Under the pieces are notes generated by a model, which worked only from the letters and a program-made list of their open reading frames with translations, ran no database searches and was not told the origin of the DNA. The translations under genes and the position numbers were made by a program. Shown here piece after piece: positions 22,146 to 64,000 of a stretch of DNA of 64,000 bases (position 1 is its first letter; the number at the start of each line of letters is the position of its first letter). The stretch comes from Bacteroidetes bacterium UBA2664. Lineage in GTDB: Bacteria; Bacteroidota; Rhodothermia; Balneolales; Balneolaceae. The stretch spans positions 2,438-66,437 of the forward strand of contig DEMS01000032.1 in NCBI GenBank assembly GCA_002359315.1. Reading direction: 5' to 3'.

Positions 22146-22146
22146 G

Positions 22147-22220
22147 TGGGCCCGGCAGGACTTGAACCTGCGACCAATCGATTATGAGTCGACTGCTCTA
22201 ACCAACTGAGCTACTGGTCC
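22147..22220 (-). tRNA. tRNA-Ile(CAT)-like copy at the left att junction, probably pseudo (acceptor mismatches)
   Basis: 74 nt, GGACCAGTAGCTCAG...CTCATAA...GGTTCAAGTCC...CGGGCCCA; 5' GGACCAG vs 3' CGGGCCC gives 2 mismatches. Confidence 0.75.
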
Positions 22221-28626: not shown

Positions 28627-28848
28627 ATGCCCAAGGTAGAAACTAAGTCTATATCCCAAGTTCGTAAAGATAATTACTCCCAAGCCGTTGGTGAAGGCAT
28701 TACGGCAATTACCCTGAACGGGGAATTTGTAGGTGTTTTAATCACCTGTGGAAATTCATCACAGGAATTGGCATCCCTTCGCCACAAAAGACTGTTAGAC
28801 AATCCGGTTCACACCATTACCGAACTCACCAAGCAGGTGCTTCAGTAA
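28627..28848 (+). CDS. Small protein, weak Phd/YefM-like pattern
   Basis: SISQVRKD...AITLNGEFVGVLI. Confidence 0.4.
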   Translation: MPKVETKSISQVRKDNYSQAVGEGITAITLNGEFVGVLITCGNSSQELASLRHKRLLDNPVHTITELTKQVLQ

Positions 28849-29861
28849 TGCAGAGCGGTTACGTAAACATATTACCAGATACCCAGCAGCAATACACCAG
28901 AGCACGGGCTGTGGATGCTTCTTTGGGAGCATCCACAGTACCTCTTTCTACTCGACGCCAGGCGTACCCCGGTGTGGAAGGCGTGCTTTCGGCAGCCAGT
29001 AGGCTGGTTACCAAATATACTGGCGACGAGCGCATTCGCTCACTTGCCCTCAAAATTACAAGCACGATTCGGCGACACCGGCTTACAGGACAACCCGACC
29101 TGCGAAACATTGACGCTATTGCCTCTGCCATATACAAGTGGATGGTGCGCAACGTGAATTATGTGCGCGATCCGTGGGATGTCGAGCGTATTCAGTCGCC
29201 CTTTGTCACCATAACCCAACGGGCTGGTGACTGCGACGATCATGCTATTTTAGGTGCAGCCTTATTACAAAGTCTCGGTATTCAAACGGGCTTTCGCATT
29301 GTCTCGCGAACCGGACGCCACTTTGACCATATTTACGCGGTGTACCAATCACCTACCGGTTGGAAATCATTCGATACCACCGTACTGAAATATCCCGGTT
29401 ACGTATTTGACGAGCGGCTCATTAAAAAATCCAGGCACGTCACCAACCAGATGCCTGAAGGCTTGGGGCTTGATCCCATTACGCTACTCACCACGGCTAC
29501 CACAATGGCCAGTACCGGGATGACGCTTAAAAATACCTTGTCCAATATATTTGGAGCCAAAGATAAAGATGAGCGTCAAATGCGCGGAGCCCTGCGAGAC
29601 TATCTCATGCAGCGGGGCGTGCAATCCGAAGTGATCAGTCTTTCCCAAAAAGACAATGCCACCCTTCAGCGCTACGCACAGATTATAGATGAACTTGGAG
29701 CCCCGGCGGTTCAGCAACTGAATCGCTACGGGCAACTTTCCCCGGTTTGGGTTACTCAACAACAAGTAGCAAATAAAAACAAAAAAATGGGGCTCTATGC
29801 CGGTCTTGCCATTGGAACACTGGTTCTGATTGGTGGCGGGTATATGCTTCTAAACAAATAG
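28848..29861 (+). CDS. Transglutaminase-like (papain-fold) protein with C-terminal TM anchor, putative maturation protease
   Basis: YVRDP, GDCDD, HIY, WKSFD give a Cys-His-Asp triad; internal EGLG; C-terminal TM. Confidence 0.8.
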   Translation: MQSGYVNILPDTQQQYTRARAVDASLGASTVPLSTRRQAYPGVEGVLSAASRLVTKYTGDERIRSLALKITSTIRRHRLTGQPDLRNIDAIASAIYKWMVRNVNYVRDPWDVERIQSPFVTITQRAGDCDDHAILGAALLQSLGIQTGFRIVSRTGRHFDHIYAVYQSPTGWKSFDTTVLKYPGYVFDERLIKKSRHVTNQMPEGLGLDPITLLTTATTMASTGMTLKNTLSNIFGAKDKDERQMRGALRDYLMQRGVQSEVISLSQKDNATLQRYAQIIDELGAPAVQQLNRYGQLSPVWVTQQQVANKNKKMGLYAGLAIGTLVLIGGGYMLLNK

Positions 29862-29864
29862 ACC

Positions 29865-30287
29865 ATGAGTAAAAGTGGATTTATCATTCCCTTAGAGGAT
29901 ACTGTCATTGGAGAGGAAGACGCGGTGATTGCCGTAGCCATCAGTCCGGGACTCGGCAACTGGGAAGAAACCGACCCGTGCCGGTATGCCAATCAAAGTT
30001 GTAAAGGCAAAATGTTTGGCAAGCTGAAAAGCTGCCGACGTCAACGCGAGAAAAGTCAGGCGCTATGCAAAGCGCACGAAGCTTCCCTTCAAAAGAAAGC
30101 CCAGTGGGAAGGCCAGCGCGAGGAAATGATGCAGGCGCTCCAGACCAATCTTACCACCACCGCCTCCCAACAGAAAACAGCCAATTCGACCATGAAGTCG
30201 GGTATCGCTGTGGGGGGAGTCGCCCTTACCGGTGCCATTGCTTTGGCGGTTTTAATGCTGAAACGAAAAAAGAAATCTTCTAAATAA
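29865..30287 (+). CDS. Tail-anchored, Cys-containing putative virion membrane protein
   Basis: SGF...PGLG N-terminus; C-terminal TM plus KRKKK. Confidence 0.65.
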   Translation: MSKSGFIIPLEDTVIGEEDAVIAVAISPGLGNWEETDPCRYANQSCKGKMFGKLKSCRRQREKSQALCKAHEASLQKKAQWEGQREEMMQALQTNLTTTASQQKTANSTMKSGIAVGGVALTGAIALAVLMLKRKKKSSK

Positions 30288-30300
30288 GCAGGCCTGTCCC

Positions 30301-30624
30301 ATGACCAAACAACCCAGCGGTTACACCAGTTTTGATCTTCTCAACCAACGAGCAGCTACTGTTACCCAGCCTACCCAAACCAAATTTGGCTCGGCTTTAA
30401 CCTCTATTAGTGACCTCCTAAAGACCGCGACCGATACCGTGGTGACCATAGATGGGGTCGTCAACAAAGGCGGTAACAAGTCTGGAGGCGGGCAACCGGC
30501 GATGCTTTACCCAGGCCAAGGAGCACCTGCTCCCAGCGGCTCGGGAGAGTTGATCAAGTATGCGGGCATAGCCGGAATCGCCATTGGCGGTGGAATCATT
30601 CTACTCAAAGTGCTGAAGAAGTAA
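30301..30624 (+). CDS. Tail-anchored putative virion membrane protein
   Basis: PSGY N-terminus; Gly-rich C-terminal TM plus KK. Confidence 0.65.
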   Translation: MTKQPSGYTSFDLLNQRAATVTQPTQTKFGSALTSISDLLKTATDTVVTIDGVVNKGGNKSGGGQPAMLYPGQGAPAPSGSGELIKYAGIAGIAIGGGIILLKVLKK

Positions 30625-30626
30625 GT

Positions 30627-30896
30627 ATGCAAGCAGGACGAATTTCAACATTTCTGGATGGAGGCGTTCCAGGTGGCCATGCTCCTATGGTATTGCCAGA
30701 GGTAGAAGACACTTCCTACGAACAGCCTGATATGCAGGTCATCGAAATGGGCGAAGGCGAAGAGCCTACGGCCAAAAAACTATGCCAGCGACTTCAGGAG
30801 CAGCCGATTTCACTTTCGCAGTGGATTCGGGATAACCAGAACACCTTAATGATTGCGGGCGGCCTTTATGTGGGCTATCGCTTGCTAAGGAGGTAA
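30627..30896 (+). CDS. Tail-anchored putative virion membrane protein
   Basis: C-terminal LMIAGGLYVGY-RLLRR. Confidence 0.6.
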   Translation: MQAGRISTFLDGGVPGGHAPMVLPEVEDTSYEQPDMQVIEMGEGEEPTAKKLCQRLQEQPISLSQWIRDNQNTLMIAGGLYVGYRLLRR

Positions 30897-30897
30897 A

Positions 30898-31581
30898 ATG
30901 AACGCGCAATCAGGATATATCGACACCGGACTCGGGCAGCTCAACCTGTCCAGCAATATCATAAGCTCGGAGGCGGTAGAACTTCGCATCATCGGACGAA
31001 ACCCCGCCTCGGGGAACCCGCCCAGTGGGGTTCCGTTTTCCCTCGATCTTGAAATTGAAACTTTCCGAAACTGGGCTAAAGTGATTTTTGTGCCGTTTAT
31101 GGCCAGATGGGGGCAATGCCCCGACGCCCTGGTGGTGGTTCGCTCGGAGCAGACTGGATCGGTGTTAGGCTTCCAGCGTTTCCAAACCTCGATGATGGAC
31201 GGATGCCGCGCACAGGGACGAGTTCTCTTTGACCGCTCGTTTGTTCCCACCTCAGCCCATAAAGTAATTTTTGAAGTGTATCCCGTTGATGTGGAAATGA
31301 GCAGTATTTCCGCTTCCGATCTCATTGCAAAATCCACGCCTATTTCTCTCGACCTTGACCAGAAAACCGGCGAGCAGTCGGGGGTGTATTCTCCCCCCAC
31401 AGAGTCGTGGTACAAAATGCCCGAACTTGGGCCAGGTAATGCCCTTGGGGAAGTTAACACGCTACTCAAACGGGTAATCATTATATCATTTGCTGGCGCG
31501 GGGCTTTATTTCTTAGCCCCCATGCTCCCCGGACTTCGGGCAGGCATCAAAGCTTTAGCCCCAAAAGTAGGTTCCGAATGA
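30898..31581 (+). CDS. Beta-rich protein with C-terminal TM
   Basis: QSGYIDTGLG N-terminus; VIIISFAGAGLYFL TM. Confidence 0.65.
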   Translation: MNAQSGYIDTGLGQLNLSSNIISSEAVELRIIGRNPASGNPPSGVPFSLDLEIETFRNWAKVIFVPFMARWGQCPDALVVVRSEQTGSVLGFQRFQTSMMDGCRAQGRVLFDRSFVPTSAHKVIFEVYPVDVEMSSISASDLIAKSTPISLDLDQKTGEQSGVYSPPTESWYKMPELGPGNALGEVNTLLKRVIIISFAGAGLYFLAPMLPGLRAGIKALAPKVGSE

Positions 31582-31973
31582 GATCTGGGTATGTACCACA
31601 TACCGGCTCCGGCCTACACGGCATGGACGATTACCTGCAGCGCACCTCTCAGAACGCTTTCAAACTGTTTGCGGGCAAACTTCAGAGCGCCACAAGCGGT
31701 CGCCGTGGCCAGCTTGCAACGATGGGACTCAACCTGGCCAACCTAACCACCAGTAAAGCAGGCATCAACAAGGTATATGAGCAAAACGCCGGAGTCATTG
31801 ACGACTACTTCGAGTATGTGGATCTGGTGGCACTATCAGAAAAACTGGGCGTGGAAGAGGCGGTCTCGACGGGCGTGTCTCGCTCGCTGCTCAAAACCGG
31901 ATCAATGATTCTAATTGGCATGGCCATCGGGATGGCAGGACAACGAATATTTACAGGAAAAAGGAACCAATGA
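31578..31973 (+). CDS. Tail-anchored putative virion membrane protein
   Basis: MRSGYV...SGLHG; C-terminal TM. Confidence 0.6.
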   Translation: MRSGYVPHTGSGLHGMDDYLQRTSQNAFKLFAGKLQSATSGRRGQLATMGLNLANLTTSKAGINKVYEQNAGVIDDYFEYVDLVALSEKLGVEEAVSTGVSRSLLKTGSMILIGMAIGMAGQRIFTGKRNQ

Positions 31974-32281
31974 CATTAAAGAAAGGCGACTCAGGACAAC
32001 AGGTACTCCGGCTGCAAGCAGGACTGCAAAAAGCGGGCTTCGCGCTCCCTCAATACGGTATTGACGGCAAGTTTGGCCCCGAAACCCAGTCGGCGGTCAT
32101 GCAGGCCCAGCGCCGATTTTCCCTTCCGGTAACCGGAGTAGCTGGCCCGGACTTGCTGGCTAAATTAGGCGCTACCGGTCTTCCTTCCACCCAAAATTCA
32201 GCGGTTTTGAAAAAGACCGTGCTTGCTGGCATTGCTATCGGAGTGCTGTTTGTAATCGCCAAGAAAATGAGGAAACATTGA
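31970..32281 (+). CDS. Peptidoglycan-binding domain protein with C-terminal TM
   Basis: LKKGDSG.QV.RLQ..L...G...DGKFGPET..AV...Q.....VTGVAG. Confidence 0.88.
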   Translation: MTLKKGDSGQQVLRLQAGLQKAGFALPQYGIDGKFGPETQSAVMQAQRRFSLPVTGVAGPDLLAKLGATGLPSTQNSAVLKKTVLAGIAIGVLFVIAKKMRKH

Positions 32282-32282: not shown

Positions 32283-33536
32283 ATGGATAGCCAGAACACC
32301 ATGAGCGCCAAAGAGCTGGCAACCCTCAACATCAAAGGCATTAAAATAGCAAGCCCATACGGGGCACTTCTTGGAGAGCCAGAGAAAAATGCGGTCATTT
32401 TTATTTGGGGCGAAAAAGGAGCCGGAAAATCCACCTTCAGTTTGGGTCTGGCCAACGCGTTAGCCCAACACGGAAGAGTGGAATACATCCCCGCCGAAGA
32501 GCATTTCGGAAAAACCTTGGTGGATCGGGTAAAACGCTTAAACGCTACCCACTCGAACCTCAATTTCACCAAATGGAAATCCCTTACCAGCCTCAAAGAA
32601 ATTCTACTTAAAAATGGATCGGCATTCTGCGTGCTTGACTCCATCACTGTGATCGAAGCCAACGATAAAATGACGGTCGAACTGGCCCAGTGGTGCCGGG
32701 AGCAAGGTATTGGGTTCATCATGGTGGCTCACGCAACTAAGGACGGCAAGTACAAAGGCAATACCAGTATTGCCCACGAGTGCGACATCGAAATCAAGGT
32801 CACCAAAGAGGGCCTCGCCGAAACCGAAAAGAACCGCTATCAGGTGCTCAGCTCCATCGAGGTTCCCTTTACCTCCACCCGAAACAATGAATATGAAAAA
32901 GTAAAAACGGCTCCCGTGAAACGAGAAAACCCTGTTGACCTGCCCTTTAGCATTTCACTCAAAGAAATCGACAAACTCCACAAACTTCGCTCATGGAAAC
33001 GGGTGAATTCCCTGCTCGGCTCAAAGATGCCGTGTTACTCCAAACAGCATTCCGGGGAGTCCGAGCGGGCAACGCTGAGCATTCGCTACGTGCCGGACTA
33101 CTACAACAAACGCTATATCGTAGAGCTGCTCATTGACGGGGAGCTCAAAACCCAGATTTGCACCGAAGGAGCTAAAGGCGGGTTTGCCGCTTCCTGGGCC
33201 CAGCTGGTGAAAAAGCACGGCAACCTGGAAGTGCAGATTCTCGCCCAGGATCACGCGAAGAAAGTGTTGGGGGCACGAGAATACCGAAGGCAGGAAAAGC
33301 TTCAGAGTAAGAATTCAGATTGTCCGCCAGCAAGAAAATCAAACACAAAGAAGAAGCCAAAGCGAAAGCCTACTCCACCCACCAAGAAAACGGCCAAGAA
33401 AAAACCGGCGGTAAAGAAAACCAAACCGGTACCTAAGCCTAAAGAGCTGGCAACTCCAAAGCAGTCCGTGGATCTGGAAGCCGCTCGAAAAAGCCAAGCC
33501 AAACTCGACGCCTTTTTAGAAAAAGTACTTAGCTAA
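32283..33536 (+). CDS. RadA/Sms-like RecA-fold ATPase with Lys/Pro-rich C-terminal tail
   Basis: GEKGAGKST, AEE, VLDSI, HATKDG, HECD, KNRY; KKPKRKPTPPTKK tail. Confidence 0.75.
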   Translation: MDSQNTMSAKELATLNIKGIKIASPYGALLGEPEKNAVIFIWGEKGAGKSTFSLGLANALAQHGRVEYIPAEEHFGKTLVDRVKRLNATHSNLNFTKWKSLTSLKEILLKNGSAFCVLDSITVIEANDKMTVELAQWCREQGIGFIMVAHATKDGKYKGNTSIAHECDIEIKVTKEGLAETEKNRYQVLSSIEVPFTSTRNNEYEKVKTAPVKRENPVDLPFSISLKEIDKLHKLRSWKRVNSLLGSKMPCYSKQHSGESERATLSIRYVPDYYNKRYIVELLIDGELKTQICTEGAKGGFAASWAQLVKKHGNLEVQILAQDHAKKVLGAREYRRQEKLQSKNSDCPPARKSNTKKKPKRKPTPPTKKTAKKKPAVKKTKPVPKPKELATPKQSVDLEAARKSQAKLDAFLEKVLS

Positions 33537-33539
33537 GCG

Positions 33540-36500
33540 ATGCCAGTAGTTAAAACAAATATCGACCAGATTACGCACCTGTCCACCGGCGACTTTGATC
33601 ACTGGCTGGGCGACTGGGACTCCGATGGAATCGTCAATATTGATGATCCCAACCCGCTTACTCCGGGCGATACTGCCCCTGTGTCTGAGGCCGAACTGGC
33701 CCCGCAGATCAAGGCGGTGATTGAGACGAAGAACAACTACATCCCAGCCCTGAAGAAAGTCATGAAAGGCCTAATCGGGATGAATTTGGCGCTGGTCGTC
33801 AAGGGTCGCATTAAAGAAGTGTATTCCACTTTAGGGAAACTTATTCGCAAGCGGTTTCCGTTTACGGAAAAGATTGCCACCAAGTCTGGAGAAAAATACA
33901 CAACCGGCCTGACCGATGTGGCAGGCTGTATGGCGATTGCCGAAACGCAGGCGCAGGTGGATCAGATTGTGGAGCGTATCCAGTCGGGCGAGCTGGGTGA
34001 GGTGTGGGAACACGAAGACAAATATAAACATCCTGCAAACGGCTACCGCGCCCATCATTTTATCCTCGTAGTGGACAAGCTGTACCCGGTCGAAATCCAG
34101 GTAAAAACCAAACGGATGTCCATGATCTCGGCGGCCTCACACCAGCCCTATAAAGTGGGCCAGCTTAACGGAGCGCTGCTGGAAGAATTGACCCAGCTCG
34201 CGTGGAAAGCTGACAAGGGCGACACCGAATCGACAGAAAAATTGGAGCCGTACTTAGCAGATCTGGACGCTCTTGAAACTCAGCTTACTCTTCGATCTAA
34301 TCCAAGTGGAGAACTTCAGCAACTTCAGGCAGATTTTGAGCAGACCATAGGCAAACTGGCACTGGCGTTTCAGCTGGATAAGTTTCCAGCTGAGTACAAG
34401 CAGGAAGCCCTGGAGCTTTTCAGGGCACACGGGCGCATCATCGGCGTCGATTTTGATGGGGTATTTAAACAAGCCTCTACCAAAGAATCTAAGCCGATCA
34501 AGGAGCCCAAAAAGAAATCAGGCCAATCAATTTTTAGGTTTAGTGACACCGAATTGTCGGAATTTGCGCCCATCAAACTAACGGCCTCCGAGCGTCGCAA
34601 GGCCAACGAAGCGGCTATCGCCGTACTTCAAAAGGAAGACCGCGCGATTACCAAATCCGATATTGAAGTACTTCGTACGTACACCGGGGCGGGTGGTTTA
34701 GGATACACCGAATCCACCGAACATTCCAAGCGGGGTTTGTTGAATGAGCACTACACGTCCTACCCCGTGGTCAAACTCATCTGGGACAAACTTCAACAGA
34801 TGGGTGTTACGGGCGGCAATATTTTAGAGCCAGGTTCCGGCGTGGGTAACTTTGCCGGATTCCTTCCCGACCGCGAGAAATTCCGCATGGTCATGATCGA
34901 ACGCTCGGCCATTAGCTCCCGCATAGCACGTCTTTTGTACCCGATGCAGACCGTGCGCCACGAGAACTTTGCGGGCACCGATCTATCCCTGTATAACCTG
35001 ACCGGCGTGGTTGGAAACGTGCCCTTTGGGGACCTGAAAATTCATACCTCCCGCGACCCGCTGGCCCCGCTTAGCCCACGCATTCACGACTATTTTATTC
35101 TGAAATCACTGGACGCATTGAAGCCCGGTGGTTTCTTGGCCGTAATTACCTCAACCGGCACGATGGACAAAAAAGACCCGTCCATTCGGCAGGCTATGAT
35201 ACAACGTGCCCGCTTTGTCGGGGCCTACCGGTTGCCTTCAACGGCGTTTAAAGACAACGCCGATACCACGGTAACCACCGATATTCTGTTTTTCCAGAAG
35301 TATGGGGAGCACCAGGGAGCAATCCATCCGGATGTGGACTCCAAGCTCAACCGACTTTTTGCACAGGAAGATCTGATTGAAAGTCAGGTATCCTATAATG
35401 GTGAAACCTATACCGCTTTTTACAATCCCTTCTTCAAAGAGCATCCCGAGCATGTGTTAGGCGAACATATTCAGGGGCACCATGTACAGTTTTATTCCCG
35501 CATGGGCGTTAAAGGCGAGCTTTCCGAAGGCCTCATTCAAAGGGTGCTTTCTGACGGACTAACTTTTCCTTACGCGCTTCCGGGCAAGATGCCATTGTAC
35601 AACATACCCGATGACGGGATTATGCTCGACCTTCCAAGATCATACCATCCGGGGAATATCGTTTTCCACGAGAACCATTTTTACGAGAAACAGCGACGGT
35701 TTTTCAAGCGGCTTACGCTCAAAGGCGGCTCGGGGCTGGAGACCCGCATCGGCTCGGCTTGCCAGCTACTCGATAAATACGACGACTATATTACCGCACT
35801 GGCACAGGAAACCAGCGAAAAGGACGCCCTCCGCGCTGAGTTCAAGCAGTTGCTTGCGGGTCACATAAAGCAGTATGGTATTCCCGATGAAGACGAGGAC
35901 ATCCGCAAGGTGTTCAAGTTCGACAACCGGCTCTACAAGCTCACAACGCTCGTGAAGCGAGATCCGCTTAACGAGGAACTCGTGTATGCGGACATCATCG
36001 ACGCCGATTCCATGTTCAACCGAAACTACGTGCCTGCGGTCAAAGACTCCGATGATCTGGCTGAGCTGGCCATGTTCGGGCGCAGTATTGGTGAGACCTT
36101 AGATATTGACTTCTACCAGTCGGTGTACAAAGGGGGAACGGCGAGCAAAGAGGATCTGGAAAAAGCATTGGAAGATCACCCTGACTTTTACTGGAATCCG
36201 GCCACCGGAAACCACGAATTTCGCTACCAGTACCTGTCTGGTAACGTGCGCGAGAAACTGCAACTGGCCCAGGAGCACGAGCTGGAAAAGAATATTAAGG
36301 CACTCGGGGAAGTCGTGCCCGAATGGATCGACGTGTATAACATCACCGTGGACCCGCAGCACGTGTTCACCTATTTGCCCGCCAAAGCCATTGAAGAGTG
36401 GATTAAAGATGAAATGAATTACGATAAGGTGGAAATCGGCCTGGTCAAAGACAAAGCCGATCTGGGTAACCGGTTCTACATGAAGCTTCGAAAATGGGGC

Positions 36501-39500
36501 CGGTACATTTCTACGGGCGATGAGACCCCCGACGACGACAACCTCGGCTGGGGCGAGACGCCGTTTACGAAAATCATTACCTCTTACATTCAGGACAGCA
36601 CGTTTCCACTGAAGTTCTATGATGAGGACGATACCCTGATGCCGTCGATGACGCTCAAAGAGGCGCAATCCATGAAGGGCGAACGGGGCCAAATGCTCAT
36701 CGAGCGAGCGCGAAAAATACAGCGCCAAAACAACAACCGGATGCTCACGCACGTGCCCAAAAAGTTCAACAACTGGGTGCGCACCAAAGCTTCGTCCGAA
36801 GTCCGGAGCCTGATCGAATCCGCCTACAACCAGACCTATAACGCCGTAATCAACCCGCCCTTTGACGGGCGCACCCTTCGCGTTCGCGGCATGAGCGATA
36901 CCTTCTACGGGGTGAAAGACTTTACCGTGTACAAGCACAATCGCGCTATTGCCGAAAAGTTGGTCTGGAACGGTAAGGGTGCCAACTGCCACGATGTGGG
37001 GGCAGGGAAAACACTCGCTTCCATTATCACCTCCCAAGTGCTGCTCCAGCAGGGAGCCGCCCGAAAACCCATGTTTGTCGTGCCTGGAAAAGTGCAGGAA
37101 AAATGGGTGGAAGAATACCTGATGCTCTTTCCTGACGCCAAAGTCCTCAACATGAAAATGGCCTCTGGCGACAAGCACAAAGAACTTACGATGGCCCAGC
37201 TCTACAACTGGGACGCTATCTTTATCGCTGACCACGCTTTTAAATCGCTTCCGCTATCCCCAGCCGAACAGGCTCGTATTTTTCAAGAGCGCATCGACTA
37301 CTTCAACCAGATGTTGGAGAATTTCGAGGATCTGCTTGAGGAAGACGAGGCGATCTCGAAAGCGGTCAAGACCTCCATGATGAAACGCATGGAAAAGCAG
37401 ATGGAAGAATGGGAAACCAAACTCCGCAATGTGGCCCATGCCAAACGACTCGAAACCGATATTTTCTTTGACGAGCTGGGCGTGGACTGCCTGTTCTTTG
37501 ACGAGGCGCATTTCTACAAAAACGCCCTTGGTTCAGCCAAAGCCGCCAAGCTGGGAATCTCGGCAAACAAGCCTTCCCAGCGCGCCGAAGACGCCCTGCA
37601 AAAAACACGGTGGCTGTTCAGCAAAGTGGGCCATAAAAACGTGTTTGTCCTTACAGCGACTCCGGTAGTCAACTCTCCGGTGGAGGTATGGCACATGCTC
37701 AACCTGTGCGCCCCGGATTTGCTGACCAAATACGAAATTGAAAACCTCGACAACTTCATCAACCTGTTTGTCCGGGAAGAAGAAAAGATCGTCAAAAAGA
37801 CCAACGGGGAATACCGCTCCGAGCGCGTCGTGGCCGGGTACTACAACCTGCCGGAAATGCGTAAGATCATTGACGAGGTGATGGACATCAAGAGCTACGA
37901 TCAGCTCATCGGGTTTTACAAAGAGTTTCCCGATTACATTCAGGATGAATCCGGAAATACGATTAAAGGAAAAGACGGAAAGCCCAAGGTGCTCGAACCC
38001 AAATTCAAGCGCCCCAAGGCCAGCACCCGCAACGTGATTATTGAACCCAGCGAGCTGCATAAGCTTCTTTTTGATGACATTATCCTCCGAGCCAACGAGG
38101 TCATTGCCTGTATGAAAGACCGGCAGTGTGAGACCCGCGACAACTTCCTGGTAATTACCGGCGATGGTAGTAAGATTGCCACCGATCTGCGGGTGTACGA
38201 CAAAGATTTTGAAGGTATTGATCGCTCATACCTCAAGCTTGGAGCGATGGTGGAAAACGTGGCAGCTTCCTATGGTGCCCGTTCCAATCCGGCTCCCGAA
38301 ATGGTGCCCGAAGACCTATACGGCGACTACTTTCACCGGCCTGGCAGAGGACAATTGGCCGTCACTCCTCCGCACTTGCGAGAGAATCCTTCTCATATTG
38401 AAGTCATCACCAGCAAGGGCGTGGTAAAAGAAAAAAGTGGCTACTGGGTGGTGTGGGATGAAAAGAAAGAGGTTTATGAGCCCTTGCATATACTGGAGCC
38501 CAAAAAGGCCGAACACACGTGGAGCGAAGGCATCTTTGGCAACGAAAAAGAAGCTACCGAGCGCGCTAAAAAGCTAAACGCGGAGTGGGAGCAGATCAAA
38601 GCCAGTCGATCCAATCCAACCAGCCCAGCCATTCGCAACCAGATTATTTTCTGCGACTGGATCAGTCTTCATCAGTCACAGGGAGGTAGCTTCCATCAAC
38701 TCATCAAATCCGAGCTGGTCAAAGCTGGAATCCCCAAAGAACAGATTGCGATCATCAACGGGTCCATCATTGGCACGAGCAAAAACGGGGATGATTATTC
38801 CGTCAGTAGCAAAGACGATAAGGAAGCATTAAAGAAAGAAGTGCAGGATGATTTTAACCAGGGCAAGTACCGCGTGGTGATTGGTAACCAGTCGATTGCC
38901 GAGGGGATGAACCTTCAGAAGTGGACCACCGACATGCACCATATGGATGTGCCCTACACACCTTCGCAAATCCAGCAGCGCAATGGGCGCGGGCTTCGTC
39001 AAGGCAATCAGTACTCAGAAGTACAAATCCATTACTACCTGATGCAGGACTCTTTTGATCAGTACCGGCTGGAACTCGTCTCCAAGAAACAGAGCTGGAT
39101 TGATGACCTCTTCTTTGGCACCGGGCGTGAAGTCTCCACCGGTGGCGACTCGGAGTCGCTGGAATACGAGCAAATGGTTGCTGCTACCAACTCCGATCCA
39201 CGTGTAAAACAATTCTTTGAGGCTTTAGCGCAAAAGAATGTGCTCGACGACCGGATTGATAACCTTGAATCCGAGGTTCAGCGACTCCAGGCCAGCCAAG
39301 TGCAGGCAACTACTGATATCCAGGGAAAACAGGATCGCATGAAAAGCGTGGTAGAGCGCGAAACCGCCCTGCAAAACTCGAAGCTTCCCGATAACGCTGA
39401 AATCGCACTAAAGGAGAACCTGTTTGAGGCGCAGTACGGGTGGAACGGCGAGCCGTACCAACTCGATATCCAGTTGAGCTCCGACGCAAAACGCATCTCC

Positions 39501-40769
39501 GGCTACCGCATGAAAACCGTGCTCGATGTGCCCGATAACAACGCCAACGGGCGGGTGTGGTTTCACCTGATCCCAGACAGCAATATCCCTGACCGCTCGT
39601 TCTACAACAAACAGACGTGGGGTTCCATCAAACGCATGGCCTCCAAAGAGCTGGCCACCACCTTTGGGTGGACGCTGGAAGAAAAGACGGGGCAAGGAAA
39701 ATCCATCTCCGGCAACCTGGGCAACATCATTGCCACTGAGGAAGATTTTTACAATGAATACGGCATCGACATTGAAGTCGAGAAAGCTAAAAAAGACGAG
39801 GCCGGAAACGAGCAAAGCTTCAAGGCCATCAAAGAGTCCGCCGGGATGTTTACCATCAAAAAGTGGCAGCCGATTATCACCCGAAAACTGGCGGAGCTGT
39901 TTCTGGAACTCGAAAAAGCATGGATCAGAACTTCGGAATCACGAATGGAAATTCTAAGCAGTGAGCTGAAGCAAACTGAGAAAACACTGGCCGAACTTCA
40001 AAAGGTGCTGGCGTCCACAAAGGGCGAACTGGAAGCGGCCAAAACCGCTCGGGAGAACAACCAGAAGACCGTGATCGAACTCAACGATGTGGTCAACCAG
40101 CTGGTGGCGGTGAGCTACGACGACCGGAACGAACTGTATGAAGAGATCAACCGGATCGCCCCGAAATACAAGATCCGCAAGACCATTACCGTCCGTGATG
40201 TTGGGGCGCTGAAAGGCAATACCCCCAAAGGCGCGCCCCAGCTTCGTGAGAACAAAGCCCACAATATGCCTGGAAAAACATCCAAACGGCATGGCGTACT
40301 AAAAACCCTCTACGAAGAACCGCTGGTGTATTCCGGCATCGTCAAGGAACTGGAGTACATCGACGCCAAAGGCTACATGCAGCGCATGGAAGCTGAAAAG
40401 GATGATCTGGCAATGATCATTAACGCCAAGGGCACCACTATTTATGTGTTTCCAACAAACTTAATGAGGCTCTCAAAGGGAGCCTACAATGACCCGAAAG
40501 CCGCCGAAATGTTTGAGGAGTTTCATCATTTCCCGGCAGACGACTACGACTATGAGCTGTTTCCGCCTGCGGGCGAGAAACTGATCAGTGCCGGTTACGC
40601 CGACCGCATTATGTACGTGAGCGATAAGATTATCTACGCCGATGACGAAAAAGGCAAGGACAATCACTATTTCCACTACTTCGATGCGGGCAAGCGACCG
40701 GTGTTTAAATACGGTGATGTGTACATCATCGCTAACGTCAACATAGACGGCAGGGGCATTCTTAATTGA
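33540..40769 (+). CDS. 2409-aa multidomain protein: RelA/SpoT-like synthetase, N6-adenine methyltransferase and SNF2 helicase (DarB-like)
   Basis: GRIK, DVAG, GYRAHH, EIQVKT; LEPGSGVG, GNVPF; HDVGAGKT, DEAH.YKN, TATP, EGMNLQ, QRNGRG.RQG. Confidence 0.88.
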   Translation: MPVVKTNIDQITHLSTGDFDHWLGDWDSDGIVNIDDPNPLTPGDTAPVSEAELAPQIKAVIETKNNYIPALKKVMKGLIGMNLALVVKGRIKEVYSTLGKLIRKRFPFTEKIATKSGEKYTTGLTDVAGCMAIAETQAQVDQIVERIQSGELGEVWEHEDKYKHPANGYRAHHFILVVDKLYPVEIQVKTKRMSMISAASHQPYKVGQLNGALLEELTQLAWKADKGDTESTEKLEPYLADLDALETQLTLRSNPSGELQQLQADFEQTIGKLALAFQLDKFPAEYKQEALELFRAHGRIIGVDFDGVFKQASTKESKPIKEPKKKSGQSIFRFSDTELSEFAPIKLTASERRKANEAAIAVLQKEDRAITKSDIEVLRTYTGAGGLGYTESTEHSKRGLLNEHYTSYPVVKLIWDKLQQMGVTGGNILEPGSGVGNFAGFLPDREKFRMVMIERSAISSRIARLLYPMQTVRHENFAGTDLSLYNLTGVVGNVPFGDLKIHTSRDPLAPLSPRIHDYFILKSLDALKPGGFLAVITSTGTMDKKDPSIRQAMIQRARFVGAYRLPSTAFKDNADTTVTTDILFFQKYGEHQGAIHPDVDSKLNRLFAQEDLIESQVSYNGETYTAFYNPFFKEHPEHVLGEHIQGHHVQFYSRMGVKGELSEGLIQRVLSDGLTFPYALPGKMPLYNIPDDGIMLDLPRSYHPGNIVFHENHFYEKQRRFFKRLTLKGGSGLETRIGSACQLLDKYDDYITALAQETSEKDALRAEFKQLLAGHIKQYGIPDEDEDIRKVFKFDNRLYKLTTLVKRDPLNEELVYADIIDADSMFNRNYVPAVKDSDDLAELAMFGRSIGETLDIDFYQSVYKGGTASKEDLEKALEDHPDFYWNPATGNHEFRYQYLSGNVREKLQLAQEHELEKNIKALGEVVPEWIDVYNITVDPQHVFTYLPAKAIEEWIKDEMNYDKVEIGLVKDKADLGNRFYMKLRKWGRYISTGDETPDDDNLGWGETPFTKIITSYIQDSTFPLKFYDEDDTLMPSMTLKEAQSMKGERGQMLIERARKIQRQNNNRMLTHVPKKFNNWVRTKASSEVRSLIESAYNQTYNAVINPPFDGRTLRVRGMSDTFYGVKDFTVYKHNRAIAEKLVWNGKGANCHDVGAGKTLASIITSQVLLQQGAARKPMFVVPGKVQEKWVEEYLMLFPDAKVLNMKMASGDKHKELTMAQLYNWDAIFIADHAFKSLPLSPAEQARIFQERIDYFNQMLENFEDLLEEDEAISKAVKTSMMKRMEKQMEEWETKLRNVAHAKRLETDIFFDELGVDCLFFDEAHFYKNALGSAKAAKLGISANKPSQRAEDALQKTRWLFSKVGHKNVFVLTATPVVNSPVEVWHMLNLCAPDLLTKYEIENLDNFINLFVREEEKIVKKTNGEYRSERVVAGYYNLPEMRKIIDEVMDIKSYDQLIGFYKEFPDYIQDESGNTIKGKDGKPKVLEPKFKRPKASTRNVIIEPSELHKLLFDDIILRANEVIACMKDRQCETRDNFLVITGDGSKIATDLRVYDKDFEGIDRSYLKLGAMVENVAASYGARSNPAPEMVPEDLYGDYFHRPGRGQLAVTPPHLRENPSHIEVITSKGVVKEKSGYWVVWDEKKEVYEPLHILEPKKAEHTWSEGIFGNEKEATERAKKLNAEWEQIKASRSNPTSPAIRNQIIFCDWISLHQSQGGSFHQLIKSELVKAGIPKEQIAIINGSIIGTSKNGDDYSVSSKDDKEALKKEVQDDFNQGKYRVVIGNQSIAEGMNLQKWTTDMHHMDVPYTPSQIQQRNGRGLRQGNQYSEVQIHYYLMQDSFDQYRLELVSKKQSWIDDLFFGTGREVSTGGDSESLEYEQMVAATNSDPRVKQFFEALAQKNVLDDRIDNLESEVQRLQASQVQATTDIQGKQDRMKSVVERETALQNSKLPDNAEIALKENLFEAQYGWNGEPYQLDIQLSSDAKRISGYRMKTVLDVPDNNANGRVWFHLIPDSNIPDRSFYNKQTWGSIKRMASKELATTFGWTLEEKTGQGKSISGNLGNIIATEEDFYNEYGIDIEVEKAKKDEAGNEQSFKAIKESAGMFTIKKWQPIITRKLAELFLELEKAWIRTSESRMEILSSELKQTEKTLAELQKVLASTKGELEAAKTARENNQKTVIELNDVVNQLVAVSYDDRNELYEEINRIAPKYKIRKTITVRDVGALKGNTPKGAPQLRENKAHNMPGKTSKRHGVLKTLYEEPLVYSGIVKELEYIDAKGYMQRMEAEKDDLAMIINAKGTTIYVFPTNLMRLSKGAYNDPKAAEMFEEFHHFPADDYDYELFPPAGEKLISAGYADRIMYVSDKIIYADDEKGKDNHYFHYFDAGKRPVFKYGDVYIIANVNIDGRGILN

Positions 40770-40797
40770 ACCACCCGCCAGAACAACGAAGGCACCT

Positions 40798-41301
40798 ATG
40801 AAAGAACGCGTGTTCGCCAAGAACCCTTCCGAGCTACAAATCATCGAAAACCCAAACAAACGACGCAGTAACATGGCAAAACAAAGCAAAATCACTACCG
40901 AGAAGGCGGTCTCTGAATTCAAGCAGCAGGCTATCACCGCCGGATACATTCTTGGTGGGCAGGCTGTAGCAGCGCAGGTTAATGCCCTGGCCGTCCCCAT
41001 GCTGACAGGCAACGCATCTGCTACCATTCAACAAGCAACACGAGCGGGTATTCCACTTACCGCCGGTGTGCTCCTAACCCTTGTGACCAAGAACAAACAT
41101 CTTCGCGGTCTGGCAATGGGTATGGGCGTGCAAGGCGTAATGGAAGCCATCAAATTTATCATGCCCGACTGGACGCCCCAGCAAGGCCTGATGGATGGTT
41201 CCGGGTACGTGTATGACGGGGTCCCTCAGATTCCGGAAACCACCCATCATGTAGATGATGTGGAAACTTCAATGGAAGTGAGTAACACCATCGAAGTATA
41301 A
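40798..41301 (+). CDS. Membrane protein preceding the putative capsid genes
   Basis: Basic N-terminus with KNP/ENP, Gly/Ala-rich hydrophobic helices, GLMDGSGY. Confidence 0.65.
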   Translation: MKERVFAKNPSELQIIENPNKRRSNMAKQSKITTEKAVSEFKQQAITAGYILGGQAVAAQVNALAVPMLTGNASATIQQATRAGIPLTAGVLLTLVTKNKHLRGLAMGMGVQGVMEAIKFIMPDWTPQQGLMDGSGYVYDGVPQIPETTHHVDDVETSMEVSNTIEV

Positions 41302-41391: not shown

Positions 41392-42003
41392 ATGAGCAAC
41401 AAAATTAGCAAAAAGGCTTTAGTGCCTGCAACCGCACGCATCAAGACCTACTACGACACCAAGCAGGTCGTACAGAACGACAATGTTATCAACTTTTTCC
41501 CGGCCAATGCCACCCGTAAAGTCACCCGTGACAACTACGTGAACAACCCGTTTCCGGGTTCCATGAAGCGCCGAATTTTAGGCTTGTCCTTTGAACTCAC
41601 CAAGCAGTTCATCGAAGACGACGCGGCCAACGGCATCGACGCGCGAGCCATTGTGAACGGCCTCAAAGATGCGGCCATCTTACTTCAGGCCGACAACGAC
41701 AACAAGGAATTCCTCCGCGCCCCAATGAGTGAATTCTCCAATTTTGCTGGCACCGGTATCCAGCTTGCTTCGGCAACGGACAATACCGTGGACGCCGTGG
41801 CTTCTTTCAAGAGAGTAGCCACCATCAAGAGCGCGGGTGAATACCGCTTGGCCGATCCGTTTGATCTGGCTGTAAACCAGACGGTTTCCCTTGCCGTGCA
41901 CTTTGACGACGCTTCGGTTTTCCCTTCGATTGAAAACTGGACGCAATCAGGTCAAGGACAACTTTGGCTCCGGGCTTCTCTGGTAGTCGCAGAAGTTGAG
42001 TAA
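41392..42003 (+). CDS. Putative single jelly-roll major capsid protein
   Basis: Beta-strand pattern YYDT..NFF..N..P..ILGLSF...PFDLAVNQTVSLAVHF...LRASLV; followed by terminator; fold inferred only. Confidence 0.5.
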   Translation: MSNKISKKALVPATARIKTYYDTKQVVQNDNVINFFPANATRKVTRDNYVNNPFPGSMKRRILGLSFELTKQFIEDDAANGIDARAIVNGLKDAAILLQADNDNKEFLRAPMSEFSNFAGTGIQLASATDNTVDAVASFKRVATIKSAGEYRLADPFDLAVNQTVSLAVHFDDASVFPSIENWTQSGQGQLWLRASLVVAEVE

Positions 42004-42087: not shown

Positions 42088-42864
42088 ATGAAGATTATCT
42101 CCAATTTTTTACCTCCTAAAGAAAGTTCGGCCTACAATCCGGCCAAGTCGGTTGAGGTGCAACCGGGAGCAACGGCTCACCTTACCATGAACGGCATGGG
42201 TGGAGAGCGCTACGGCATCCGAAAGATCCTCCCGTTCAGCGCCAACATGAATGCCATTTTGATCTCGGCCCGCCTGAATGAAGACCTCTACCTGTTTCGC
42301 GATGTGCAGCTATCGGTGGTGCACAACCTGTTCAAATCCATTGACGGGCTTTTTGCGCCCTTCATCATTCAGAAGAACAACCACATCGTTTTTGAACTCA
42401 CCAATACCGGTGCCGCTAAACAGACCGTCAACATTCAGCTTGTCGGTTATGACCAGTTTGCCCTATCTAAACTCAGCGCGGCCTACCAGCAAATTGGAGC
42501 TTCGGTTCCCGTACCCCGGTTTCTGTATGGACATAGCACGGTTCCGGCAAGCGGGCTCAACATTGATCTGGGCGTGAAAAGCAAAAGCGTGGACGTGCAG
42601 GTTCGGCGCATGGCCATGAGCAGCAACCAGCCCGGAACAATTACCGCCTCGATGAAAGTGTACAACACCACGGTTCGCGATGAAGTATTCCTGGAGCAGG
42701 TGAACGATGAGTTCAACGACAAGTACATCAATGTGCCTTTTGTGGTGGGATCGAACGTTCCCTTTGATGTGTACGCTTCCAACTACGGTGCCCAGCCTGC
42801 AGAGGTAAGTTTCCTCTGCGAAAGCTACGTGCAGGCAAAAACCGGATTCATCCCAGCGGAGTAA
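42088..42864 (+). CDS. Putative double jelly-roll-like capsid protein (internal duplication)
   Basis: Two halves end PFIIQKNNHIVFELTN..TVNIQLVGY and PFVVGSNVPFDVYASN..EVSFLCESY. Confidence 0.5.
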   Translation: MKIISNFLPPKESSAYNPAKSVEVQPGATAHLTMNGMGGERYGIRKILPFSANMNAILISARLNEDLYLFRDVQLSVVHNLFKSIDGLFAPFIIQKNNHIVFELTNTGAAKQTVNIQLVGYDQFALSKLSAAYQQIGASVPVPRFLYGHSTVPASGLNIDLGVKSKSVDVQVRRMAMSSNQPGTITASMKVYNTTVRDEVFLEQVNDEFNDKYINVPFVVGSNVPFDVYASNYGAQPAEVSFLCESYVQAKTGFIPAE

Positions 42865-45851: not shown

Positions 45852-46238
45852 ATGAAATCATCTTCCGGATATATCTACAGCGAGGAAAGCTCCCCCGGTT
45901 TGGGGCGCATGATGCTCGACCCGACGCTACCCACCGAGTTGAATACGGCTATCCAACCGGTCTCTTCAATCGGTACAATTCGACCAACCATACCCATTTC
46001 TCGGGGGCTTTCTCCCAGAATCAGGAAACCGGTTCTGCCAAGGTTGCCCAAGATCAAACCACCCAAAGTGACTCCGGTGGTACGAGATTTGGCCAAAAAA
46101 CCAACAGCAGCTGTCCAACCCGCAACAACTAAAAGCGAGCCGGTGGCCACCCAGAAAAAACCGATGAACAAGAAGATGATCGCACTTGCCGGGGCCGGTA
46201 TTGTTGGAGCCGGAATCCTCTTTAAAATCTTACGCTAA
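45852..46238 (+). CDS. Pro/Lys-rich tail-anchored protein
   Basis: SSGYIY...PGLG; C-terminal TM. Confidence 0.65.
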   Translation: MKSSSGYIYSEESSPGLGRMMLDPTLPTELNTAIQPVSSIGTIRPTIPISRGLSPRIRKPVLPRLPKIKPPKVTPVVRDLAKKPTAAVQPATTKSEPVATQKKPMNKKMIALAGAGIVGAGILFKILR

Positions 46239-46254
46239 CCTAACCTGAAAACCC

Positions 46255-46488
46255 ATGAGTAAATCAAGCTATACCTCTGATAACGGCCTTGGATGTGGCT
46301 GCGGATGCAACGGAGCCGGAATCGGTTCTTCCCCCGTCGTGGACGTTAAAAACGCCGAAGCCGAAAACACCAAAATGGACTTGGTGGATACGGCCAAAAA
46401 GTACATCAATGGCGACGTGCCGATGAAGTACAAAGCCGCTGCCATTGCCCTCGGTGCTGGCTTTTTGTGGCTAAAGTTCAAGAAATAG
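46255..46488 (+). CDS. Small tail-anchored protein with CGCGC
   Basis: SSY..NGLGCGCGC; C-terminal TM plus KFKK. Confidence 0.65.
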   Translation: MSKSSYTSDNGLGCGCGCNGAGIGSSPVVDVKNAEAENTKMDLVDTAKKYINGDVPMKYKAAAIALGAGFLWLKFKK

Positions 46489-46492
46489 TCCT

Positions 46493-47742: not shown

Positions 47743-48123
47743 ATGAGCAAACAATCCTGTATTCGTGATGTAGCCGATCTGAACCAGATCAACCGCTGTA
47801 TTGATTCTATCCATGCGGTAGAATCATCCATCTTAAAACTCTCGGACATACTGAAACTGGCCGGGAATGATGTGCGCCTGAAAATTCTGTTCTTGTTGAG
47901 CACGGAGAAAGATTTATGCCCGTGCGATTTGAGCGATATTTTAGATATGACCGTACCGGCGGTATCACAACACCTGCGAAAATTGAAAGACGCCGGACTT
48001 TTAGATTCAAGAAGAGAGGGAAAGCTCATTTTCTATTCCCTGCAAAAACCTTATGACGATCTTTTGAAACCACTTTTCAACCAAATTGAAAACAATACCA
48101 TTATGGAGGTATTAGCCGCATGA
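47743..48123 (+). CDS. ArsR/SmtB family metal-responsive repressor
   Basis: RLKIL, LCPCDL, AVSQHLRKLK. Confidence 0.92.
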   Translation: MSKQSCIRDVADLNQINRCIDSIHAVESSILKLSDILKLAGNDVRLKILFLLSTEKDLCPCDLSDILDMTVPAVSQHLRKLKDAGLLDSRREGKLIFYSLQKPYDDLLKPLFNQIENNTIMEVLAA

Positions 48124-48746: not shown

Positions 48747-48750
48747 TAGG

Positions 48751-50388: not shown

Positions 50389-50407
50389 AAGAGTATCAAT
50401 AACCGTT

Positions 50408-51286: not shown

Positions 51287-51322
51287 GTTGGTTGGGGTTT
51301 ATTTTTTGTCAATAAGAATTTT

Positions 51323-53211: not shown

Positions 53212-53272
53212 GGTTGAATATATGGGATTATTTTCATCTTCAACTTAACTGTGACAAAGAATCACCTGTTCC

Positions 53273-62530: not shown

Positions 62531-63706
62531 TCACCGTAAGTTTGTCATCTTCATTTTTAATTTTCTTACAGTAAGATGAGTATATTTTTCCGTCACTTTT
62601 TGGCTTGAATGTCCAGCCATATAGCTTGCTTCAGCTGTATGAAATCCTTTCTCAATCCAAGTAGTAACTGCTTGGTGTCTCATTCCATGTAAAGTACGAG
62701 AGGTAGGAATACCTGCTTCTTTGCAGTAACGCTTAAATTCCCGATACACTCTCATACCACGAACCGGTTGGCCTTTTGTATTTCCACCGGTATAAATAAA
62801 CACATAATCACTGGGGATTATCTTACCACGAATCTTTAAGTACCCATTCAGTTCATTTTTTAATTCATTAATGATGGGGATCAGCCGTTCTTTTCGGCCT
62901 TTGGTGGGTGGTAGGGAAATGTAGCTTAATTCTCCATCTTCATAGATCAGGTTTTCACCTTTCAGTCCGGAGTAGGAAAGTTCAGGATCATAAGCCGCTT
63001 CATGTTTTCGGAGTCCACCATAGAAGTACAATGCCACAATAGGTTTGAACCAATGCTGAACCAATTTAGGGTCAAATTCGGGCAAATCTTTCTTTCTGGA
63101 TAGCTCTTCATCGAATTTCTTAAAAAGAATTCCAAGTTCTTCCTCAGAAATCATTTTAGGCCGGGTATTTTCTCTAATTCGGGGTAGATCCTGTTTCAGC
63201 GCAGGAAAGTAGTCCTTCTCCACAATGTTCTTTTTCAGCAAAAACTTCCACCAAGACCGGAAATGTCGGAAGTAGTAATGCCTTGTAGCTGAAGTAATGC
63301 CCTTTTTGAAGATCACATTCTCAAAATGGTAGCTTAAAACATTGGTTGGGTGTACATCCGATAACTCATTTAATTCCACAAAATGATCTAAAGCTCGCTG
63401 GTAGGCTCCAATGGTTGCCGGAGAGAGGTGGTTTTTTGATTTGTAGAAAAGCTCGATAGATTCGCTCACCGTGTTGCTGTCAGTGGTGTCATCACTGGTG
63501 TTCCTTTGCAAAACCTTCTTAGGATTGAATCCTTTTGAAAAGGGATTGATCTTGCCTAACGAATCCAGTTTTTCGAGTTCGGTTACCATTTTCTGAGCAA
63601 CATCCTTGTGTCGGGTGCCCAATGATTTTCGAACATTCTTTTTACCCAGTTCTTCAGAGTAAAAATTTACATAGTAGTATTTACCGCGCTTGATAAGAAA
63701 TGCCAT
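62531..63706 (-). CDS. int: Tyrosine recombinase (integrase)
   Basis: GLRK.E, TKG, HGMRH, GHSS, KYTH catalytic set; N-terminal arm-binding-like SLGT. Confidence 0.95.
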   Translation of the reverse strand: MAFLIKRGKYYYVNFYSEELGKKNVRKSLGTRHKDVAQKMVTELEKLDSLGKINPFSKGFNPKKVLQRNTSDDTTDSNTVSESIELFYKSKNHLSPATIGAYQRALDHFVELNELSDVHPTNVLSYHFENVIFKKGITSATRHYYFRHFRSWWKFLLKKNIVEKDYFPALKQDLPRIRENTRPKMISEEELGILFKKFDEELSRKKDLPEFDPKLVQHWFKPIVALYFYGGLRKHEAAYDPELSYSGLKGENLIYEDGELSYISLPPTKGRKERLIPIINELKNELNGYLKIRGKIIPSDYVFIYTGGNTKGQPVRGMRVYREFKRYCKEAGIPTSRTLHGMRHQAVTTWIEKGFHTAEASYMAGHSSQKVTEKYTHLTVRKLKMKMTNLR

Positions 63707-63928: not shown

Positions 63929-63933
63929 AATTG

Positions 63934-64000
63934 TGGGCCCGGCAGGACTTGAACCTGCGACCAATCGATTATGAGTCGACTGCTCTAACCAACTGAGCTA
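63934..64000 (-). tRNA. tRNA-Ile(CAT, lysidine type), 5' end beyond window; integration site
   Basis: TAGCTCAGTTGGTTAGAGCAGTCGACTCATAATCGATTGGTCGCAGGTTCAAGTCCTGCCGGGCCCA; Ile2 rather than Met inferred from likeness to ileX-type sequences. Confidence 0.85.

Follow-up and report, generated by a model that had tools for sequence, protein, structure and literature searches.

SSIP-1, short for Salisaeta icosahedral phage 1, is a tailless, membrane-containing phage with two types of capsid protein, as described in the available parts of three reviews, which in these parts mention neither a peptide motif nor protein processing (PMC6356626, PMC6260650, PMC5332951). Here, we describe a related element in a 64,000-nucleotide stretch of DNA, in the following referred to as the window, from the Balneolaceae member Bacteroidetes bacterium UBA2664 (contig DEMS01000032.1, positions 2,438 to 66,437). 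As far as its genes alone can tell, this element is a tailless provirus of the SSIP-1 type. Its soluble proteins carry a recurrent motif, R-x-N-P (RxNP), and the sequences of its relatives argue that RxNP is a protein-level signal at the joints between swappable modules of predicted virion-cargo polyproteins. On a modest balance of probability, this signal is a maturation site, where a virus-encoded protease would cut after the asparagine and free cargo enzymes from ATPase, membrane-anchor or C-terminal modules.

Several described systems invite comparison. SSIP-1 itself shares with the element a syntenic particle module and the motif, which it carries in gp41 and gp43, whereas the element is integrated in a Balneolaceae-like host, has a single gp45/46 homolog and encodes DarB-like and RelA/SpoT-like cargo; gp43 carries other cargo. 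A second likeness is to the polyvalent proteins, such as DarB, DdrB and DarA of phage P1, in which conflict domains are strung together in one chain of a mobile element (Iyer et al., 2017; PMC5512222). In the accessible text of that study, packaging and proteolytic release are proposed for the class and reported for DdrB and DarA, which are processed before or during packaging; most phage examples are tied to portal-terminase phages, and the zincin MPTase is proposed as the cutter. The word ‘Salisaeta’ is absent from its main text. The conflict domains of the element and its relatives comprise DarB-like methyltransferase with SNF2, RelA/SpoT-like, ArdC, ddrB-ParB, LPD1, LPD3, ART-PolyVal and PBECR domains. 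The element nevertheless differs from the class in that it is tailless, has no HExxH protein (MPTase is common in the class, but not universal) and possesses a defined motif at the joints.

A third likeness is to the site codes of prohead proteases, namely SPN3US gp245, which cuts after A-x-E, and T4 gp21. Here, according to the parts of PMC7411985 at hand, a short motif with the information content of three residues is common to unrelated internal virion proteins, and internal proteins of this type are delivered to the host. RxNP, by contrast, consists of other residues, is absent from the capsid proteins and stands at both sides of modules, whereas the sites in SPN3US and T4 lie only after propeptides; moreover, the element has no recognizable prohead serine protease. 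Finally, a conserved Asn-Pro is the scissile bond in the autoproteolysis of the RsgI periplasmic domain and of reovirus mu1/VP5 (PMC10328401, accessible part) and might be so here, but those proteins have single sites in a dedicated fold, whereas RxNP recurs in variable linkers and requires an arginine two residues before the asparagine.

In the window, three neighboring proteins are concerned:

32283..33536, + strand: RadA/Sms-like ATPase with a C-terminal module, 417 amino acids (aa); matches phrog_6891 (E 2e-30) and is homologous to the SSIP-1 structural protein gp40 (E 6e-29)
33540..40769, + strand: polyvalent protein of 2,409 aa (the giant protein), counterpart of SSIP-1 gp43 by a C-terminal match
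40798..41301, + strand: predicted core protein associated with the membrane; its SSIP-1 homolog is gp44 (E 5.6e-11)

The ATPase protein matches TIGR00416 over aa 35-199, far under the family cut-off. The giant protein consists, in this order, of a RelA/SpoT-like module, a DarB-like N6-methyltransferase and SNF2 helicase with an insert, a coiled region and a C-terminal domain. Its DarB-like part matches phrog_10089 (E 8.8e-171) and phrog_11801 (E 1.2e-172), with SNF2 and Helicase_C found by Pfam, which assigns the helicase inserts to no family. Its start (33600-33660) holds an acidic, D-x-D-x-D-G-like stretch, GDWDSDGIVNIDDPNP, which is kept in homologs and resembles a calcium-binding repeat. 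The sites in these proteins are the following:

32922..32933, + strand: RENP, aa 214-217 of the ATPase protein, directly after the RadA/Sms-like ATPase domain
34293..34304, + strand: RSNP, aa 252-255 of the giant protein, at the joint of its RelA/SpoT-like module and DarB-like core
38280..38291, + strand: RSNP, aa 1581, opening the insert in the second RecA-like lobe of the helicase, just upstream of the QIIFCD strand
38379..38390, + strand: RENP, aa 1614, between insert a (~30 aa, with a conserved D-[LI]-Y-G-D-[FY]-F) and insert b (73 aa)
38607..38618, + strand: RSNP, aa 1690, closing the helicase insert
40245..40256, + strand: RENK, aa 2236, a variant site before the C-terminal domain
40816..40854, + strand: AKNP (KNP at aa 8) and IENP (ENP at aa 17) at the start of the protein at 40798, a conserved NP pair without arginine

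The motif had been pointed out in a sequence-only reading of the window, whose R[S/E]NP and RENK positions are all exact on translation. That reading let the first RSNP of the giant protein end the RelA domain; the position, aa 252, is right, but the Pfam RelA/SpoT match ends at aa 206, so that the site follows the C-terminal extension of the domain. The KNP and ENP of the protein at 40798, which it had added to the motif, were likewise correctly placed, and the pair is conserved across the listed homologs down to SSIP-1 gp44 (AQNP, HENP), but without the arginine on which the consensus depends. To judge from these alignments, the NP pairs are a related feature, separate from the arginine motif in this window; several distant homologs of this protein have a basic arm followed by a true RxNP.

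The proteins of the element comprise 8,814 aa, in which R[SE]NP occurs five times, against 0.11 expected from composition; these are at the same time all of their RxNP, of which 0.82 would be expected. When all gapped three-residue patterns in the three proteins are allowed to compete, R.NP ranks first, with 11 of 300 shuffles being equally strong (p ~0.04). The host background is low, with 90 RxNP in 736,439 aa (1,655 open reading frames (ORFs) of at least 200 aa; 0.12 per 1000 aa), and among these ORFs only the giant protein has four, while two others have two. The window alone is modest evidence; the decisive evidence is conservation.

For this, we compared 29 distinct long homologs of the giant protein, the one in the window included, 27 of which share its layout, at identities of 62-98%. 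The sites at aa 252, 1581, 1614 and 1690 have invariant R, N and P in all 27. At aa 2236, R and N are equally invariant, while K, R, S or Q takes the fourth place, or P or G in distant relatives. This retention at linkers, for which the sequence-only reading had suggested aligning homologs, contrasts with the drift of the flanks, where 13% of the columns are invariant versus 47% protein-wide. The other two, L068 and L069, have neither the RelA module nor the helicase insert, and hence not those sites, but carry RKNP or RSNG before the C-terminal domain. The second position of the consensus is free, being filled by S, E, A, P, Q, K, D, N, G or V.

Rates for the individual protein classes, taken from loci L036-L074, show where the motif is confined. 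Per 1000 aa, the ATPase class has 2.41 RxNP (35 of 36 ORFs), the giant-protein class 1.84 (34 of 44 ORFs, fragments included) and the homologs of the protein at 40798 have 0.47 (3 of 36), compared with values from 0 to 0.16 for the classes of capsid and membrane proteins; the two capsid classes have one in 7,741 aa and none in 9,263 aa. The earlier suggestion of a second peptide code besides GLG thus finds support, in that RxNP belongs to the soluble virion-cargo classes and is nearly absent from the capsid and tail-anchored membrane classes. The GLG code named in that reading is found in the tail-anchored membrane proteins (28848-32281, 45852-46490), with SG[YF] near the N-terminus and GLG or GMG further on, as also in SSIP-1 gp34, gp37, gp53, orf36 and orf52. 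One orf36-like membrane protein (L094:1745-2170) has RQNP straight behind its C-terminal helix and then a short acidic tail.

In SSIP-1, RENP is found at aa 2 and aa 254 of gp41, the latter just before the hydrophobic tail, and at aa 2153 of gp43, before the same C-terminal domain as in the window; RENG follows the gp40 ATPase, and RVNP occurs in orf42 and orf10. In total, SSIP-1 has five RxNP, against 1.45 expected.

The motif extends to much more distant proteins. A profile of the C-terminal domain finds 204 proteins in a library clustered at 50% identity (150 of them listed), of which we analyzed 85, namely the stronger matches that contain most of the domain; short fragments and the weakest matches were excluded. 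These representatives contain 198 RxNP, where 11.2 would be expected (18-fold), and in 69 of the 85 an RxNP lies within 70 aa upstream of the C-terminal domain; RxNG or KxNP takes its place in eight, and eight have none. In 91 proteins (P0072-P0162), arginine stands two residues before NP 197 times (24.5 expected) and proline follows R-x-N 197 times (12 expected), while lysine occupies the arginine position only 15 times (24 expected) and is no substitute for it in the core lineage. In 58 weak, mostly stand-alone homologs, NP is enriched (102, compared with 33 expected), RxNP to a lesser degree (10, compared with 2).

The cargo of these polyproteins is varied, with ArdC, MPTase, ddrB-ParB, LPD1, ART-PolyVal, zeta toxin and SNF2 domains recognized by Pfam in 23 long members. 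Stretches matched by Pfam or by our profiles make up 21% of these 23 proteins and contain none of 88 RxNP, compared with 18 of 93 other NP, and the sites are not buried in recognized domains. One apparent case, inside a methyltransferase motif of P0123, was rejected, as the site lies in a linker. In some distant elements, ATPase, RxNP, cargo, RxNP and C-terminal domain follow one another in one chain, and the ATPase is fused to the cargo polyprotein in L032, L034, L067 and L071.

Could such a pattern arise by chance, from compositional bias, or from a DNA recombination site that encodes RxNP by accident? The look-elsewhere result for the window and the count for the whole of SSIP-1 leave room for this. 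Yet, composition explains the frequency neither here nor in the distant homologs, and the invariance amid drifting flanks and the exclusion from domains speak against chance as well. Since the 166 sites correspond to 87 different 12-mers and freely use all six arginine and all four proline codons, the constraint acts on the protein and not on the DNA. A DNA-level repeat was also considered and rejected, with no repeat family at the sites. We find an accidental origin scarcely credible.

The idea of a mobile mini-domain boundary, for which that reading had left room, finds direct support, as modules have been exchanged or moved while the motifs around them stayed. Thus, insert b of the helicase has 73 aa here and 81 aa in L054; between these two lineages it is unrelated (phmmer E 0.86), but both borders are kept. 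The ATPase protein of L046 contains an 88-aa module bracketed by RSNP and RANP, and a homologous module of 91 aa (E 7e-10), bracketed by RYNP and RKNP, lies in a different host protein, namely at the N-terminal end of the L047 giant protein. In L018, an ATPase insert is bracketed by the motif at both ends. The same helicase loop harbors inserts with several RxNP in P0123, P0127, P0131, P0146 and P0158 and with one in P0116, and in P0146 the insert of ~500 aa holds a whole methyltransferase domain; the helicases P0121, P0164 and P0129 have no motif at that loop. Besides the RxNP-bracketed inserts, the SNF2 regions of P0123, P0131 and P0146 contain LAGLIDADG domains, which suggests that some of these helicases carry ordinary inteins.

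Why, then, do we favor cleavage? Sequence does not settle the choice between a cut site and a loading tag, and our preference is an inference. A maturation cut fits the two-sided bracketing and the position of the motif between cargo and anchor-like modules, that is, the ATPase, the membrane tail and the C-terminal domain. The layout of gp41 (RENP, domain, RENP, hydrophobic tail) likewise fits release from a membrane anchor. The cut is predicted after the asparagine because R and N alone never vary at any of the five sites. The AxE sites of SPN3US and the cleaved internal proteins of T4 provide a precedent, as far as the accessible part of the source goes (PMC7411985), and so does the processing of DdrB and DarA in P1 (PMC5512222). 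In this scheme, the ATPase, membrane-anchor and C-terminal modules would load cargo enzymes into the particle, probably through the anchors; a viral protease would cut the R-x-N|P joints during maturation; and the DarB-like and RelA/SpoT-like products would be delivered at infection. The giant protein would yield pieces of ~28, 152, 4, 9, 62 and 20 kDa, and a nick in a surface loop would leave the helicase in two chains. In SSIP-1, such cuts would reduce gp41 from 32.4 to 28.7 kDa and would divide gp43 (262 kDa) into 243 and 18.7 kDa and gp40 (35.8 kDa) into 26 and 9.8 kDa.

A number of observations weigh against this scheme. Proline at P1' blocks most known proteases, and neither an HExxH zinc protease nor a member of a prohead-protease family (Pfam, PHROG) is found among the genes of the element; some relatives do have a zincin, but just as cargo linked to ArdC. 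The helicase would be nicked by the cut. Many junctions of cargo domains have no motif, as in runs of ArdC, MPTase and ParB, P0129 has no RxNP at all, and the 2,319 aa of SSIP-1 gp43 contain a single one. The module found in L018 is accompanied by only the downstream motif in L036-L039, L042, L045 and L065. In addition, the homologs are akin, so that motif counts are not independent events. Finally, the motif occurs as M-R-x-N-P, from residue 2 on, in SSIP-1 gp41, in P0141 and in each of the 14 distinct long homologs that come from L049-L064, where a cut would remove just four residues.

This N-terminal position is what a docking or capsid-targeting tag would lead one to expect. A particle component, such as the inner face of the capsid, the ATPase, a scaffold or the C-terminal domain, would bind RxNP, and additional copies would add avidity and tether the modules uncut. 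T4 internal proteins do use short N-terminal capsid-targeting sequences, according to the available part of PMC7411985. Six of 120 spacings between successive sites amount to only 5-10 aa, which again sits poorly with cleavage, and sites in the helicase loop would need no repair. However, one tag per chain would do, yet new modules are bracketed on both sides and keep their borders after moving between proteins. A tag also accounts less readily for a motif that directly separates cargo from anchor modules, as it does ahead of the membrane tail of gp41 and, in most of the distant representatives, ahead of the C-terminal domain. We therefore regard a tag as the main rival, possible but doubtful.

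If RxNP is a cut site, two candidate enzymes come into question:

28848..29861, + strand: tail-anchored transglutaminase-like protein with Cys129, His161 and Asp176 (PF01841, E 5e-8), homolog of the SSIP-1 structural protein gp34 (E 6.6e-32)
40314..40766, + strand: C-terminal domain of the giant protein, ~150 aa, with the end GRGILN and invariant Y-x-S-x-K and Y-x-H-x-F, a candidate anchor or candidate protease

The Cys-His-Asp triad of the former is invariant in ten of ten aligned homologs. Such a protein might also link the asparagine of the motif to a particle component, so that RxNP would mark a covalent modification or transpeptidation rather than simple hydrolysis. It is present with an intact triad in nine of nine distinct elements with unbroken sequence at that place, SSIP-1 gp34 being counted, and gp34 is a structural protein. 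Then again, no acceptor is evident, and the protein is itself tail-anchored and bears the GLG motif of the membrane proteins, so that it may serve their code instead; in L095 the upstream 10 kb gave no sign of it, and in L094 the sequence is cut short. We consider a modification of this kind distinctly unlikely.

The C-terminal domain occurs also as distant, stand-alone homologs of ~150 aa (P0163-P0221), in which G..Y-x-S, Y-x-H and an RGI-G end are invariant and the lysine is near-invariant; the domain looks internally duplicated. It has no informative match in PDB, PHROG or the ESM Atlas, the last of which was queried with the domain and with a stand-alone homolog. Co-folding of the domain with a two-motif segment (aa 1570-1630) scored 0.00, which counts neither for nor against an interaction. 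An unlikely but far-reaching idea is that the domain is a new asparagine-specific peptidase or ligase that reads R-x-N|P, cuts cargo cassettes from virion polyproteins and could rejoin R-S-N to P-T-S-P in the helicase loop, leaving an intact enzyme. If true, this enzyme-driven protein splicing would serve a large lineage of tailless viruses, so far barely described, as a system for plugging in cargo.

Self-cleavage would require no separate protease. The asparagine side chain would attack the Asn-Pro bond with assistance from the arginine, and the absence of a classical maturation protease from the element (Pfam, PHROG and HExxH scan) accords with this. At aa 2236, however, K, R, S or Q replaces the proline while R and N stay. 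The NPTH motif of FlhB is a further case of Asn-Pro autoproteolysis. The reaction is established for RsgI and reovirus mu1, but, in the cases treated in the accessible part of the source, in a defined fold with conserved neighbors (PMC10328401), whereas here it would have to proceed in variable linkers of unrelated modules. Self-cleavage thus appears very unlikely.

The provirus in which these proteins are encoded spans ~41.9 kb and is integrated at a tRNA gene, with a tyrosine integrase adjoining the right repeat:

22146..22214, - strand: left attachment repeat, 69 bp of tRNA-Met
63933-64001, - strand: right attachment repeat, identical 69 bp, its last base just beyond the window (63933..64000 inside)
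62531..63706, - strand: tyrosine integrase of the provirus (PF00589, E 1.2e-16)

Repressor and primase genes lie on the left, followed by the particle operon (~27.5-47.6 kb) and by metal-resistance genes (47.7-62.4 kb). The latter form a mercury and heavy-metal block between the lysis genes and the integrase (47743-62392), with ArsR, MerT, a MerA-like reductase, cation efflux and a CusA/CzcA-type RND protein; it lies within the attachment repeats, and close relatives have other genes at that position. A third, near-identical copy of the 69-bp repeat with similar flanks on another contig (G000:C42:66853-66921) suggests either that another element has used this site or that the assembly is split there. 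An AbiEii-type nucleotidyltransferase gene with its upstream partner (19108-20497) lies immediately beyond the left attachment site. Three genes of less than 80 aa, which were missed at the 80-aa cut-off, are conserved in related elements: an excisionase-like gene (27110), a gene for a 73-aa protein (28627) and one for a GLG-bearing membrane protein (46255). In a sequencing run that may be its source, the stretch is found as one contig without differences.

Kinship with SSIP-1 is evident from several searches. With the C-terminal domain as the query, the only match in a protein search of a phage collection is SSIP-1 (two records). Nine proteins of the window match ten SSIP-1 proteins (gp34, orf35, orf36, gp40, the C-terminus of gp43, gp44, gp45/46, gp47 and orf54), with phmmer E-values from 6.6e-32 to about 2.6e-10 for gp34, gp40, gp44, gp45, gp46, gp47 and orf54, and a tblastn E-value of 2e-5 for gp43. 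The particle modules are homologous and syntenic (gp34, gp40, gp43-gp47 and the lytic transglycosylase). In SSIP-1, GenBank labels gp34, gp40, gp43, gp44, gp45/46 and gp47 as structural proteins, and, by the same annotation, the RENP-bearing gp41 is a virion protein as well. The element encodes many tail-anchored membrane proteins, while its ORFs between 22431 and 47643, several of which remain without assignment, give no match to terminase, portal, HK97 capsid or tail families in Pfam and PHROG, but only weak coiled-coil and lysozyme-domain matches. Related elements are found in 13 of 149 other genomes searched, and 38 related loci in GTDB genomes carry mostly the titles Gracilimonas, Balneola, Fodinibius, Aliifodinibius and Rhodohalobacter. 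Scans of IMG/VR with the protein at 41392, the ATPase, profile A3 and P0190 gave no match, and profile A4 gave one locus.

Two proteins without RxNP probably form the shell:

41392..42003, + strand: likely major capsid protein, homolog of SSIP-1 gp45 (E 6e-19) and gp46 (E 2.4e-10)
42088..42864, + strand: predicted double jelly-roll protein, homolog of SSIP-1 gp47, fold model of very high confidence

The single-sequence fold of the former has very low confidence, and its assignment follows from the homology to gp45/46. The model of the latter is a double β-sandwich that best matches the major capsid protein (MCP) of STIV (Z 10.6, rmsd 4.6, 227 residues aligned), tied with cellular double-sandwich enzymes; PM2 P2 matches with Z 8.8 (E 2.7e-5, structure search). 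A double jelly-roll is thus predicted for this homolog of SSIP-1 gp47 (L075:36043-36813), although the reviews group SSIP-1 with viruses that have two single jelly-roll capsid proteins. With one gp45/46 homolog and a double jelly-roll protein, the element may have a capsid unlike that of either known subgroup. Searched against PDB sequences, the profiles of the capsid and of the C-terminal domain yielded nothing informative, the sole match below 1e-3 being a designed repeat protein, which we discounted.

The literature searched for spellings of the motif, tailless-virus maturation and SSIP-1, mostly without subscription papers or the primary description of SSIP-1, contains no description of RxNP, and a term search of the accessible text of Yutin 2018 (PMC5894146) returned no passage on a protease or transglutaminase. 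RxNP is apparently a real, unpublished variant of known virion site codes. What is new is also accessible to experiment, since the motif is present in the cultured phage SSIP-1, which has been grown and purified, and related elements occur in cultured strains of Balneolaceae that are known by name. Little is known of the way in which anti-host proteins are loaded and released by tailless phages with a membrane, and the joint code gives exact predictions, namely N-termini at the proline and defined fragment masses. If RxNP is a cut site, Arg-x-Asn|Pro would be an unusual specificity for an enzyme, which would have to be the transglutaminase-like protein or else a domain without characterization; if it is a tag, it would be a short capsid-loading signal. 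Cut or tag alike, the motif marks module borders in otherwise unannotated giant proteins.

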